Assembly (NCBI GenBank): GCA_052327205.1
Contig: CM126220.1
Coordinates: 10,974,001-11,038,000 of the forward strand
Reading direction: 5' to 3'
Length of the DNA: 64,000 bases
Origin: Somniosus microcephalus
Taxonomy: Eukaryota
The translations under genes were made by a program, and so were the position numbers. The notes beneath the pieces were generated by a model. It worked only from the letters and a program-made list of their open reading frames with translations. It ran no database searches and had not been told where the DNA came from. Position 1 is the stretch's first letter; each line of letters opens with the position of its first letter. Shown here one piece after another: positions 41,283 through 54,837 of the stretch.

Positions 41283-41955
41283 ATATAGTTAATAAGGCCA
41301 TAAAAAAGAAAACAAAGCACTGGGATTCATTTCTAGAGGGATAGAATTGAAAAGCAGAGAAGTGATAAACTTGTATAGAACCTTGGTTAGACCACACAGA
41401 GTACTGTGCACAGCTCTGGTCTCCATACTACAAAAAGGATATAGAGGCACTGGAGAGGGTGCAAAAAAGATTTACTAGGATGATACCAGAACTGAGAGGT
41501 TATACCTATCAGGAAAGATTGAACAGGTTGGGGCTTTTTTCTCTAGAAAAGAGAAGGCTGAGGGGTGACCTGATCGTGGTCTTTAAGATTATGAAGGGGT
41601 TTGATAGGGTAAACGTAGAGAAGATGTTTCCACTTGTGGGCGAGATCAGATCTAGAGGCCATAAATATAAGAGAGTCACTAATAAATCCAATCGGGAATT
41701 CAGGAGAAACTTCTTTACCCAGAGAGTGGTGAGAATGTGGAACTCGCTACCACAGGGAGTAGTTGAGGCGAATAGTATAGATACATTTAAGGGAGGCTAG
41801 ATAAACACATGAGGGAGAAAGGAATAGAAGGATACATTGATGGGGTGAGATGAAGAGGGGTGGGAGGAAGTTTGTGTGGAGCATAAACACCGGCATAGAC
41901 CAGTTGGGCCGACTGGCCTGTTTCTGTGCTGTAAATACTATGTAATATATGTAAT
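41283..41955 (+). mobile_element. CR1 LINE 3' fragment
   Basis: ORF 41459-41800 QKRFTRMIPELRG…RRNFFTQRVVRMWNSLPQ; same subfamily as the host of the 51.5-kb insertion. Confidence 0.93.
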
Positions 41956-43837: not shown

Positions 43838-44935
43838 CATAGGATTATGTAGGATATACGGCACAGAAACAGGCTATTCGGCCCAACCAGTCCATGCCGG
43901 TGTTTATGCTCCACTCGAGCCTCCTCCCGTCTTTCCTCAGCATAACCCTCTATTCCCTTCTCCCTCATGTGCTTGTCTAGCCTCCCCTTAAATGTATTTA
44001 TACTATTTCCTCAACCACTCCCTGTGGTAGCGAGTTCCACATTCTCACCACCCTCTGAGTAAAGAAGTTTCTTCTGAATTCCCTATTGGATTTCTTGGTG
44101 ACTCTCTTATATTGATGGCCTCTAGTTATACTCTTCCCCACAAGTGGAAACATTCTCTCTCTATCCACTCTATCAAAGCCTTTCATAATTTTAAAGACCT
44201 CTGTTAGGTAACTCCTCAGTCTTTTTTTCAAGAGAAAAGAGACCCAGCCTGTTCATCCTTTCCTGATAGATATACCCTCGCATTTCTGGTATCATCCTTG
44301 TAAATCTTCTCTGCCTCTCCAGTGCCTCTATATCCTTTTTATAATATGGCGACCAGAACTGTACGCAGTACTCCAAGTGTGGTCTAACCAAGGTTCGATA
44401 CAGGTTTAGCATGACTTCCCTACTTTTCAATTCTATACCTCTAGAAATAAACCCTAATGCTTGTTTTTTTTTGTGGCCTTGCTAACCTGTGTCGCTACGT
44501 TTAGTGATTTGTGTATTTGTACTCCGAGATCCCTTTGTTCCTCTACCGCACCTAGACTCACACCCTCCAAGTAATAAGTGACCTCCCTATTCTTCCTACC
44601 AAAATGTAATACCTCACATTTATCTGTGTTGAACTTCATTTGCCAATTATCTGCCCATTCTGCAAGTTTATTAATGTCCTCCTGTAATTAGTTGCAGTCC
44701 TCCTCAATATTGACTCCCCCCCCCCCCCCCCCCCACAAAATTTGGTGTTATCTGTAAATTTAGAAATTGTTTTTGATTCCAAAGTCTAAACTGTTAATGT
44801 AAATTGTGAACAGCAGTGGCCCCAGCACTGATCCTTGTGGAACACCACTACCCACCTTCTGCCACTGTGAATAGCCACCTTTTACTCCTACTCTCTGCTT
44901 TCTGTCTTGAAGCCAGCTAGCTATCCATTCTGCTA
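43838..44935 (-). mobile_element. CR1 LINE 3' fragment (1.1 kb) inserted in an LF-SINE-like repeat
   Basis: Minus-strand ORFs 44454-44639, 44191-44430 and 43998-44231 (KFNTDKCEVLHFG…LYRTLVRPHLEYCVQFW…). Confidence 0.93.
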
Positions 44936-50320: not shown

Positions 50321-51560
50321 GTCGGGCACAAACAAAATTCACCGTCAATAAACACTTTAATATCATAATTACTAAAGTTTTCAGTAGCTATGTGACCAAC
50401 AGTTAGAACTGTGGGGTTAGAACATATTAGTTGGAATATCATGGCCCTTAAATTCCTGGCCTTGGGAGGGCAGAACTGGGGCATACACAGGGTGTGGGAG
50501 GCCAGATTCCTGCCAGTTGCACCTGTCTTGTGACCAACCTAAAGTATGATGCAGGCATACTTATCGTAGAAAGGTGAAACTGGGGCCCACAATGCCATTT
50601 CCCAGGAGCACCAGGAGATTTAAGGTGTTATTTTTTTTTTTAATGTTCAGCTGCAATGTCCCAGCCCTCGACAGAGCAGAAAAAGTGTTGCAACAATACT
50701 TCTGGCCGCCCATAGGCAGGCACAGAGGGAGCACCATAAATGGCACCGATATCCACCCCCTAAACAACCCCATCCCCGGGATTTGCAACTCGTGGGTATT
50801 TTGCGAGCCCTAGCAATCTGCCTCACGAAGCACAAATAACACAGTTCTACCTGTGCTAGTATTTCCTTGCTTGTTGGTTTGTCCTGTTTGAACTTCATGG
50901 ACCTGGACTTTTGCAAAGGGCTGTTCTTAATGCTATTTGCTCATTGATGGATAAATCCTAAATCCTGAATCTGAATGCCAGGTATCAGCAGCTTCAGATG
51001 TATGCAGATTAATGAGAACATGGATTTAAACTTCACATGTTCCTGAGTTACGGTTATCAAACCATAAACCAAAAGCAGTTCATGGTTAGTCGTTCTGATG
51101 CTCATCCACCGTAGCAGTGTTTCTGTCCACTGCTTCACATTGTCTGTGTTGTGTTCCAGACTATCCATGGTCTCCCCCTTGTTTCCTGATTTTTCTTTTG
51201 AGCTGTTATACTGCTCAAGATTGCAAGAAAATTATGGGGCTAATTTAGAATTGATCTAACCCCAGCATCCAAAATACTACTTATTCACAGATTAAAAAAT
51301 AATTATAACTTTAGCCAATAGATTAATTTTTATAAACAAACAAAAAAAATGAGTACAGTAATGGGGGTTTGGCTGCTTGTTGTATTCTATTTATAACCAT
51401 CAGGAAAGACTGAACAGACTGAGGCTCTTTTCGCTTTTTTAGAAAACGGCTGAGGGGTGACCTAATAGAGTTCTTTAAAAATATGACGGTGTTTTATAGG
51501 GTAGACCTAGCAAAGACGTTTCCACGTGCGGGGGAGTCCAGAACTCGGTGCCATAAATAT

Positions 51561-51588
51561 GGCGGGAGTAACTATGACTCTCTTAAGG
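51561..51588 (+). rRNA. 28-nt fragment of 28S rRNA immediately upstream of the R2 insertion site (not a functional rRNA gene)
   Basis: GGCGGGAGTAACTATGACTCTCTTAAGG is the conserved eukaryotic LSU sequence that normally continues TAGCCAAATGCC. Confidence 0.95.
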
Positions 51589-51874
51589 TGGCCTGGGCTG
51601 GTGAGCTCTCGCAGTTCTACTTTGCGGGTGACTCCCGCGTGGCTTTGGTGAGAGCCCGCTCGGTATTTTGCTGGATTGAGTACTCCCTCATGCTTCCTTG
51701 AGTTGGTCTATCTGTGACTTCTTTAGGCGTTGCAGGGTAATTTCCCTCCCCCCGCGACTCCTGAGAAGTATCCAAGGTTACTAGTAACAGCGAGAATCTG
51801 GGGCTCTATATCGCTGCGAGTTGTACCTCCTAGTGGTCCCGCTGGGCAACACTTAGGTGTTGGCTGAAGCAACT
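51561..51874 (+). ncRNA. HDV-like self-cleaving ribozyme (R2 5' ribozyme), unit 1, apparently intact
   Basis: P1 GGCGGG(51561-66)/CCCGCT(51838-43) with G1.U wobble; P2 AGTTGT(51819-24)/GCAACT(51869-74); P3 ACC/GGT; L3 TCCTAGT; P1.1 CC/GG(51844-45); P4 CAACAC-TTAG-GTGTTG; J4/2 G-C51864-TGAA. Confidence 0.92.
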
Positions 51875-51895
51875 GGCCGAGAACCTCACTTTTTA

Positions 51896-52102
51896 GGTGG
51901 GAAGCAACCAAACCTCTCAACCTCTTCGGAAGTAGAGTGCCGGACCTTCGAGGACCTTTGAGGATCTCAGACCGGTTAGTCCACCGAATGTTGAGAGCCG
52001 CGGTTCGCAACCGTAGCTGCGGTAATCTTGCAGAGCTCTACGCCGCAGTGAGTCGTACCTCTGGGGTCCCACCGGCGGCCTGTGAGGGCAGTTAAACCGA
52101 CT
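51896..52102 (+). ncRNA. HDV-like fold, unit 2 (probably catalytically dead)
   Basis: P1 GGTGGG(51896-901)/CCCACC(52068-73); P2 AGTCG/CGACT; P3 ACC/GGT; GG; P4 GCCT-GTGA-GGGC. L3 is shortened (TCTGG) and T52092 sits at the catalytic-C position. Confidence 0.7.
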
Positions 52103-52123
52103 GGCCGAGAACTCTGCTAAATA

Positions 52124-52255
52124 GGCTGGATTGCAACTGAACTCCGTGCAACTTTGTTGCACTGATGTTGTAATAGCCACGGTGCCTTTGAGTGGTGGGC
52201 CGTGTGCGGGTCGTACCATTCGTGGTCCAGTCGGCGCTTTAAGCCTAACCAACTC
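52124..52255 (+). ncRNA. HDV-like fold, unit 3 (variant)
   Basis: P1 GGCTGG(52124-29)/CCAGTC(52227-32); P3 ACC/GGT; L3 ATTCGT; GG; P4 GCT-TTA-AGC; J4/2 C52245-TAA; imperfect P2 GGGTCG/CAACTC. Confidence 0.65.
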
Positions 52256-52838
52256 AAAAATAACTCAAATATTGGTTGGCGGCAACCATTTCCCCCCCGT
52301 AGGAGGGGTCAAGGAAAAAATTCATTTGACTCGTTGGAGTCAACTGTGAAGAGGCTTCAGTCAATTGCCTCAAGATTCAGTTTGGTCCTACCCGGCTGAA
52401 AGTTCCGCCACTTACAGCTTAATAGGCGTGAATAATGTCACATACCCTGGTACCAACCTAGGACTATCGAATCGGTGTCAAAGGCCAGTCAACGCCGTCT
52501 ACGCCTGGCACAGCGACCCCGGGACGCTCGTTCCAAAGTTGATGATATCGATTAGGGCAGAGGATTGACACCGCTTACTTTGTTAAAGTGTCTGTCAAAT
52601 CCAATGACTGCCCGAGAATCAACTGCCGGAGCCCCACGGGATGGGTATGGCAACCAAATTTACACATCAGATGATGAGGGATGACCATCATACTGAACGG
52701 TACTGGCTCAGTTCACTTACCTTGGTGGAGGCTTTCACGGTTGGTAGACTTGTATGGCCGTCGCAAGATCAGCCCAGTCCTTATAAGATCCTGGTTTTGC
52801 CGGCCACTTTGGTTGTGGTTAGCTGATGGACTTTTGCT

Positions 52839-52913
52839 ACGTGGACGAGCCACGTTAAGACTCAAAACGGACACTCACTTAATGGGGCTTCGGCCCCACG
52901 AGTGTGACAAAAA
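52839..52913 (+). other. R2-type 3' RNA module (pseudoknot + terminal stem-loop + short A tail)
   Basis: ACGTGG-ACGAG-CCACGT hairpin whose loop GAG can pair with CTC (52861-63); AAAA linker; ACACTC/GAGTGT stem enclosing TGGGGC-TTCG-GCCCCA; AAAAA. Confidence 0.75.
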
Positions 52914-54179
52914 TAGTCACTAATAAATCCAATAAATAATTCAGAAGAAACTTCTTTACCCAGAGAGTGGTGAGAATGTGGAACTTGCTACTACAGGTAG
53001 TGGTTGAGGTGAATAGCATAGATGCATTTAAAAGGAAGCTAGATAACTACATGAGGGAGAAAGGAATAGAAGGATATGCAGATAGGATTTGATGAAGAGG
53101 GGTGGGAAGAGGCTCGTGTGGAGCAGAAACACCGGCATAAAGACCTGTTGGACTGAATGGCCTGTTTCTGTGCTGTACATTCTATGTAATTAGCCGGACT
53201 TGGATCAAAAATATGTATGTGTAATGTATTTCAATACTCCACCAAACCATTGATTTCAATTGCCATTGTCAGAGATTTTTTACCCATTACCCTGAAGATC
53301 CACAGGGAGGGATGTATAGGGGAGAAAAGTACCTAAGAGCTCAGAGACAAATAGAAAACTAAGTGATGGGCTGGCGGGAGTGATAACAATTTACTATATT
53401 TTTTCTTGCTCAACACTGATGAAAGTCAGACAAATGGAATACATCGGGTAACAGAAATAAGTTTTATTCTGCTCCCTCCCCAAGAAAAACCCTTTAAAAC
53501 TACAGTTTTTGGGTGATGTGATACTATATACTTTCAGTTTTTACATTTAGATATCCAGGATTAGAATAAAACTATCCATCAATGCTTGCACCCCTCCCAA
53601 CATCAAAACCTATTCTATTACCCTTGCACCTACTTTACTGACTTCTTTGATACTCAGTACACCTGTCCTATAACTATAGAAAAAGTAGGATGTTTACATT
53701 ATAAAAGGAAAGATTGCCTATGTGTGTGCAATAAACGTGTTGGAATTCAATTTCAAGATCCTGATGGCATTCATAAACCAAGAAGTCATCATTAAAACTC
53801 CATGTCTTGATTTATAGCTCACTGGCAAAGGCATCTATTCTATAACTACAATTCAGGCAGCTGTAATTTCAGAACTAGAGGAAGGGAAGTGAATTGACAG
53901 TTGCACAGACAGCGGTGCACAGTCCCTTTAAGAGAAAGAAGCAGTCTGTGTAATCCATCTTTCTTGAATAGATCGGTTCAGTCTGCTCGCTGGCATTACA
54001 CCCTAAGCCACCTTAGGAGGTTGAAAGCGGCAGTTGTCCAGAGCGGCTCCAAAGCTGATTTGGAGGCTTAACAGTAACAAGATTGAGATTACAATGTGCA
54101 GAGGGTATTGCTCTTCGTTCATCATGGGAATTATGGATATCAAGACCTGAGAAAATCATCTTAGCACACAGTTTGCATG

Positions 54180-54237
54180 AGGGAAGCGGCTCCGGGACCC
54201 GAGTGAGGATTGAAACTCCGTTCTTTTGCTGTGTCTC

Positions 54238-54268
<31 letters not shown>

Positions 54269-54837
54269 CCCGGACAAATGAGCAAAGCAGCTGGGCAGCG
54301 CTGAGAGCCGCTCCGGAGCCCAGCCGCACCGCGCCCGTCTCACACACAAAACACACACACACACAACGGCAGGATTCACTTCATCGGCATTTATATATTT
54401 TGGAAACAAAACCAAAGGAGTAGCGGAGAGGGAGCCCCGAGCTGCTGGCTGACTGTGTGCACCGGGCTTTGCCAAGGTCTCGGAGGAAGCGGCAGCGACG
54501 GGCTCGCTTTCTGGACTGGGCGCCGGTGCTTGGTGCGGTCGGCGGGCAAGTCAGGTTGGTTTCTCTTCGCTCTGGCCGTTTCCGATTTCGTCTGTCTTCC
54601 TCCTCCTCCCCACCCCCCTCTCTCTAGAAAGAAAAAACTGGTATTTTCTTTTTAAAAGCCCGAGAATCCGGCCATATTTTTTTTTTACCAAGACTCATGT
54701 TTTTATGTTACCGCGAAGGGAATAAACGTGCCGGATAATTGTGGATTCCTAGATGGTTCGGGATTACTGCGCTTTTGCTTCTTGGATTGTGAGATTCAGT
54801 GGTTGGTTGTATCTAGGGAAATAACTCCCCGGTGTTG
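54180..54837 (+). promoter_or_regulatory. CpG island; candidate promoter and non-coding first exon
   Basis: Non-repetitive, CpG-dense, GC-rich segment ending at a donor-like TTG|GTAAGA (54838); its ATGs open only short ORFs. Gene not identified. Confidence 0.6.
54238..54365. repeat. (TG)13 and interrupted (CA)n microsatellites in inverted arrangement
   Basis: (TG)n at 54238-54263 and (CA)n at 54341-54365. Confidence 0.85.

Follow-up and report, generated by a model that had tools for sequence, protein, structure and literature searches.

An ORF-less R2-derived copy outside rDNA whose 5' end falls on the predicted cleavage site of its ribozyme

The window, i.e. the whole stretch of 64,000 nucleotides from Somniosus microcephalus analysed here, contains a SIDE-like copy derived from R2 that lies outside rDNA and interrupts a CR1 repeat. 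The features of this locus are as follows.

51392-51560, + strand: left part of the host CR1 copy (end of ORF2), alignable to the sequence on the left side of other insertions
51561-52913, + strand: ORF-less R2-derived (SIDE-like) element of 1353 nt, inserted in the CR1 copy
51561-51588, + strand: leader derived from 28S rRNA, positions -28 to -1, with G51561 as the predicted cleavage site
51561-51566, + strand: 5' strand of P1 (GGCGGG), pairing with 51838-51843 (CCCGCU)
51567-51818, + strand: long joiner J1/2, the length of which varies between subfamilies
51819-51874, + strand: HDV-like core with P2, P3, L3, P1.1, P4 and the predicted catalytic C51864
51819-51824/51869-51874, + strand: P2 of the HDV-like core
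51825-51827/51835-51837, + strand: P3 of the core, with L3 at 51828-51834
51829-51830/51844-51845, + strand: P1.1 of the core
51847-51852/51857-51862, + strand: P4 of the core
52051-52102, + strand: second, degenerate ribozyme-like module with a 5-nt L3 and a T in place of the catalytic C
52656-52913, + strand: 3' module, with 96-98% identity to another subfamily
52839-52913, + strand: R2 3' end with an A5 tail; 84% identity to the L152 3' end over 74 nt
52914-53190, + strand: continuation of the host CR1 copy, starting with TAGTCAC, which is in register with TAGCCAA of 28S

The change from CR1 to 28S-derived bases takes place at 51561. The first foreign base, G51561, corresponds to 28S position -28 and opens P1 as the G·U pair G51561·U51843 at the predicted cut; the initial annotation, which had placed the end of CR1 at 51560, was correct in these coordinates. 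Bases 51561-51588 were identical in 28/28 positions to -28 to -1 of L037, an uninterrupted 28S unit in this genome, and the bases after the leader, TGGCC, matched 28S +1 to +5 in 4/5 positions. The base preceding the junction is T51560, its 28S counterpart C. Empty CR1 copies read ...CCATAAATAT-AAGA|TAGTCAC; CR1 thus extends to 51560. Four target bases, AAGA, are missing at the insertion and CR1 starts again at T52914, past the A5 tail. T51560 is ambiguous in that it fits CR1 and may be an untemplated or a shared base; in any case it is not 28S. The frame of empty CR1 copies that match the left part ends RTRGHKYKIV...FFTQRVV, and we take the repeat to be CR1 from this motif rather than from a library match. 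Two empty copies of the same target site lie elsewhere in the window, at 41659-41679 (+) and 44098-44118 (-). About 1.2 kb downstream of the insertion is a CpG-island-like stretch (54150-54800; CpG observed/expected 0.89 vs 0.37 and GC 0.53 vs 0.42 for the window), possibly a gene promoter.

A BLAST search of the window with 28S -1521 to +516 yielded the element's 33-nt match as the sole genuine 28S match. Two further matches were discarded because they stem from a repeat sitting within the reference unit and not from 28S; a repeat interrupts L037 (G000 C4) some 516 nt past the R2 site. An Rfam search of the window returned no family at gathering score and only chance hits in the surroundings of the element. 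Six RNA molecules ending at 51561 (depth beside 9, run X7; two RNA runs of related label) were set aside as support, because depths of 4.04 and 0.58 over 52 bases amount to 7 and 1 reads. These reads reach 51593, which is also the last base of the 33-nt match to ordinary 28S, and they may therefore be rRNA reads; duplicates are possible.

The element has no stop-to-stop frame above 115 aa, and tblastn against the intact R2 protein found no match (best E 0.23). In a comparison bearing on a possible origin by internal deletion of a full-length R2, alignment with six R2 copies was limited to the leader and the last 45-105 nt; L152, the reference for the 3' end, is a full-length R2 lying in 28S. 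Thus the copy shares with SIDEs the lack of coding capacity and a 3' end related to autonomous R2, while it resides in CR1 and not at the 28S R2 site. The ORF with reverse transcriptase and restriction-like endonuclease that marks an autonomous R2 is present in L096/L162 and absent here. It is an off-target, SIDE-like copy. The body of the element is about 90% identical to its nearest relatives, unlike the 3' ~260 nt, and relative to these a gap of 80 nt precedes the 3' module. A 3' module of another subfamily on a divergent body suggests, as far as sequence can tell, recombination or a template switch and thus a likely chimera. Sister copies have two to four ribozyme modules spaced about 200-230 nt apart (two in the window, three in L017, four in L012), of which in all three copies only the first has a full L3 and the catalytic C.

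All helices of a complete HDV-like nested double pseudoknot, P1, P1.1, P2, P3 and P4, form in the window with standard pairs. J4/2 reads GCTGAA and holds the predicted catalytic C51864 as well as the A expected there; it has one extra base compared to the family majority. The fifth base of L3 is A in the window and C in 21/29 cores. The distance from leader to core varies from 64 to 241 nt among family members. In 28 distinct cores 95.8% of cells were paired, compared to 18-54% in slid controls, scores that are inflated by the relatedness of the cores and by the structure having been drawn from these same sequences. Two-sided, i.e. compensatory, changes were found in 6/17 pairs of the 28 distinct cores. 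P1 itself cannot covary because its 28S side is fixed. Its 3' strand, P1', reads CCCGCT in 25/29 and CCTGCT in 4/29 aligned cores. Only 2 of the 145 six-mers in 28S -150 to -1 pair fully with P1', those at -107 and -28, with the stronger duplex at -28, and no six-mer of the joiner at 51589-51818 does so. Because P1' pairs best at -28, the prediction of the cut site is independent of the junction. Pseudoknot-free folding gave P1 a probability of at most 0.1 in the window and 0 in a 28S-resident copy and is uninformative on P1. The modelled fold indicates that the ribozyme likely cut the RNA before G-28.

One junction proves little, and stray copies were therefore counted genome-wide. Family members were sought by a pattern of the ribozyme core that is blind to the leader. 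Among 67 matches 35 were in 28S, with 28S sequence present upstream, and 32 outside; after collapsing of 6 segmentally duplicated copies the latter represented 27 independent events. A CR1-mediated spread of the seven copies L004-L010 was rejected, since flanks 99% identical across 3.2-kb loci denote segmental duplication. Thirteen events start at G-28 (L001, L012, L013, L014, L015, L017, L019, L032, L035, L044, L049, L134 and L135; CpG transitions at -26/-25 were allowed and L134 was scored by eye) and another two, L011 and L136, probably do so. Three start at -27 (L022, L062, L063), seven have a shorter leader (-25 to -15) and two, L107 and L018, have none. Unbroken 28S past -28 was seen in 0/27 events. 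The sole candidate among them for a longer start is L062, which could begin at -34 if two mismatches are allowed; on the same terms L060, selected by its leader, could begin at -38. A lenient scorer that forgave T for C-29 put three copies including the window at -30; the -28 of the stricter scorer was adopted.

Across 24 script-scored events identity to 28S was 15/24 at -28 (one by chance) and 1/24 at -29 (Fisher p 3e-5). With the addition of 19 events that were selected by their leader and are thus biased, the values were 29/43 and 2/43. A start at -28 is also seen in three additional full-length events that were located by their 3' ends (L216, L218, L225), in stray protein-coding R2 copies (L031/L164, L151, L163, L153, L155) and in tandem duplications inside 28S units (L026, L071, L152). 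Truncation or microhomology can shorten ends and never lengthens them, which accounts for a sharp upper edge at -28. The starts outside rDNA pile up at -28 and 28S identity collapses at -29. This supports the proposal in the initial annotation that the junction naturally records the RNA 5' end at the predicted cut site; the pile-up runs counter to random starts of other ectopic full-length copies in 28S, by which the proposal could have failed. The junction very likely records the RNA 5' end.

Several further arrangements were noted among these loci. At L032 an inverted copy of the 28S leader (~1465-1521) lies directly upstream of the -28 junction and is snap-back-like. Many 28S-resident copies (L084-L090, L138-L148) share a 17-nt tandem duplication of the leader (-23 to -7), a propagated junction variant. 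L223 (G000 C28, 1649-5470), L213 and L036/L150 are head-to-tail concatemers of SIDE-like copies; one concatemer is joined to an inverted piece of 28S (-131 to -10) and a truncated R2, which suggests template jumping.

The CR1 site resembles the R2 target. TAG follows the A tail in 24/33 events (3 were not parsed), and in 13/43 events, one of them in a related subfamily, the 5' flank aligns to the same CR1 stretch. A pattern combining the 3' end with CR1 occurred at 29 loci compared to 1 in the control; 18 of these loci, about 16 events, carry R2 3' ends at the CR1 site, and the other 11 were dropped for want of an R2 3' end. Exact 32-mers of the empty CR1 site number 1630 in the genome, against 268 intact 28S sites. 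The CR1 site equals 28S at -5 to -2, +1 to +3, +5 and +6, also at -22, -20 and -19, and T-20 is present in 10 of the 12 empty CR1 copies displayed for site comparison. By eye, the 3' flanks of L003, L044, L107 and L225 hint at a possible second recurrent site, AAGG|TAGCAGG-like, in a LINE-like repeat. The genome contains no fewer than three R2 families that code for protein, together with another, short family (L162, L152, L155, L157). L162 is an intact R2 ORF of 1343 aa in 28S with R2Tg as its best PDB match (E 5e-225).

The source of the RNA is a separate question. In a tree of 41 rows, which left out 2 of 43 loci that have no anchor, the window falls in a clade of 10 rows (support 100/99), all outside 28S, and the assembly holds no 28S-resident member of the window's subfamily. 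The RNA could thus have been cut at -28 but have arisen by read-through of a stray master outside rDNA, its subfamily perhaps having left rDNA. With its complete ribozyme, a full-length stray copy would be expected to yield the same 5' end whatever the read-through transcript; moreover, L015 and L016 have a changed leader base in common. Yet a stray master should persist, and none of 23 candidate donors was more than 91% identical to the element body. The lack of a close donor together with the perfect 28S leader of the window favours a master in rDNA. In the tree the stray copies form a ladder and the 28S-resident ones stand mostly at the young end, a shape that speaks for turnover of rDNA masters. 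The three nearest relatives of the window begin within the leader, at -17, -16 and -23. Throughout the subfamilies the leader stays identical to 28S next to a module that diverges to 70-96%, a sequence pattern as expected if the leader is renewed from rDNA. We consider read-through of a stray master improbable; a lost or unassembled rDNA master fits better, and collapsed rDNA arrays may hide one.

Other explanations concern the end itself. Exonuclease trimming to the foot of a stable pseudoknot, without catalysis, predicts the same base, and the HDV fold is described as exceptionally exonuclease-resistant (PMC11371274). However, the predicted catalytic C is present in 26/29 first modules and P1.1 is kept in all 28 distinct cores, while both are lost in the downstream duplicate modules, which argues for selection for catalysis and makes trimming quite improbable. 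If T51560 were a deaminated CpG the true end would be C-29. A T does precede G-28 in 20/28 stray copies, but by hand count C-29 is kept in 0/28, whereas C-to-T changes at the CpG -26/-25 amount to only 5/28. In addition, the T is missing from the empty allele of the CR1-site copies L052, L067, L153, L014 and L155, which fits an untemplated A on the cDNA; a base preference for such addition was sought in the available parts of PMC8857657 and none was found there. T51560 is best taken as target-derived or untemplated, and an end at -29 seems very unlikely. The scattered shorter leaders of 7/27 events could point to a chance end of a truncated or DNA-level copy from rDNA. The mode at -28 with its sharp edge in several R2 families, and the A tails and TAG nick sites indicative of target-primed reverse transcription, leave this reading with hardly any credit.

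Thus we favor, with good confidence, the view that the window holds an off-target, ORF-less R2 copy, likely a full reverse transcript of self-cleaved RNA, probably from an rRNA co-transcript. As for the co-transcript, which the initial annotation had regarded as cut by the ribozyme in vivo, the relatives of the element do sit in 28S genes, while its own subfamily has no 28S-resident member in the assembly; an rRNA co-transcript is the likely source of the RNA. The course of events may have been the following. A master copy in a 28S gene would have been transcribed along with the rRNA precursor. P1' would then have paired with 28S -28 to -23, in a fold supported by pairing and covariation, and a cut before G-28 would have left 28 nt of rRNA on the RNA. 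An autonomous R2 protein might have bound the 3' end of the RNA in trans and nicked the target-like CR1 site (TAAGA|TAGTCA compared to TAAGG|TAGCCA, with T at -20). Target-primed reverse transcription, the hallmarks of which are seen at the locus, would have proceeded from the A tail to the last RNA base. With no 28S available for annealing, the cDNA end would have been joined directly with a loss of 4 target bases.

Self-cleavage is known for an avian -28 ribozyme (PMC11331408). The core mechanism and the reading of junctions as a record of the cut are already known: -28 is the commonest R2 cleavage site, and Eickbush et al. 2013 took tandem 28S duplications at rDNA junctions as an in vivo trace of the cut (PMC3774820). 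The ribozymes described there share with ours the fold, a P1 formed from 28S -28 and the use of junctions as cut record. In that work, however, a few per cent of the junctions within rDNA carry the record in the form of a duplication; the present copy is outside rDNA, and flanking 28S therefore cannot contribute to the leader. Drosophila R2 SIDEs (Eickbush and Eickbush 2012, PMC3414825) likewise have no ORF, a 5' R2 ribozyme, an R2-like 3' end and relatives at the 28S R2 site. In contrast, the present element has a vertebrate host, its cut is predicted to fall within 28S, at -28, and not at the boundary of the element, and it is ~1.3 kb long with duplicated dead ribozyme modules and many copies outside rDNA.

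With engineered avian R2 (PMC11371274, PMC12222951) the present events have in common that the sequence immediately 3' of the nick is matched at off-target sites, that T-20 is conserved, especially so in the off-targets of engineered R2Tg (PMC12222951), and that the 28 nt are partly or fully retained at join junctions, as known from engineered systems (PMC11371274). Unlike those, they arose naturally in the germ line, come from several R2 families and struck one LINE position repeatedly. R2s are known in sharks and rays (PMC13188248, PMC5035012, PMC13580325). R2 copies outside 28S are represented by R2NS-1_SMed and R2NS-1_CSi (Kojima et al. 2016, PMC5035012), and decayed avian R2 copies flanked by 28S-like sequence are mentioned in the same paper. 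The families here differ in that they are still at the 28S site (35/67 core matches): target specificity is leaky, not lost. In the main texts of the freely accessible papers searched, R2 SIDEs are not described from vertebrates, natural copies outside rDNA with a start at -28 are not counted, and CR1 is not named as a second R2 target.

The feature is real and well supported at the family level. In rDNA the 28 nt anneal to target DNA of the same sequence, so that the RNA 5' end cannot be seen. It becomes visible in stray copies, where dozens of germ-line insertions from several R2 families point to -28 without recourse to an assay. A bolder reading, which we hold to be unlikely, is that R2 and its ORF-less parasites use the CR1 position as a standing second target and that the window's lineage may now spread outside rDNA, cutting itself from any transcript with the captured 28 nt of rRNA. 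If true, this would be a path by which a site-specific parasite of rDNA turns into a dispersed repeat headed by a ribozyme. The stray copies constitute a natural off-target catalogue for a protein family used in gene insertion into human rDNA, including a repeated strike at a LINE that matches the off-target motif from cell culture, and they retain SIDE-like lineages that are now absent from the assembled rDNA.
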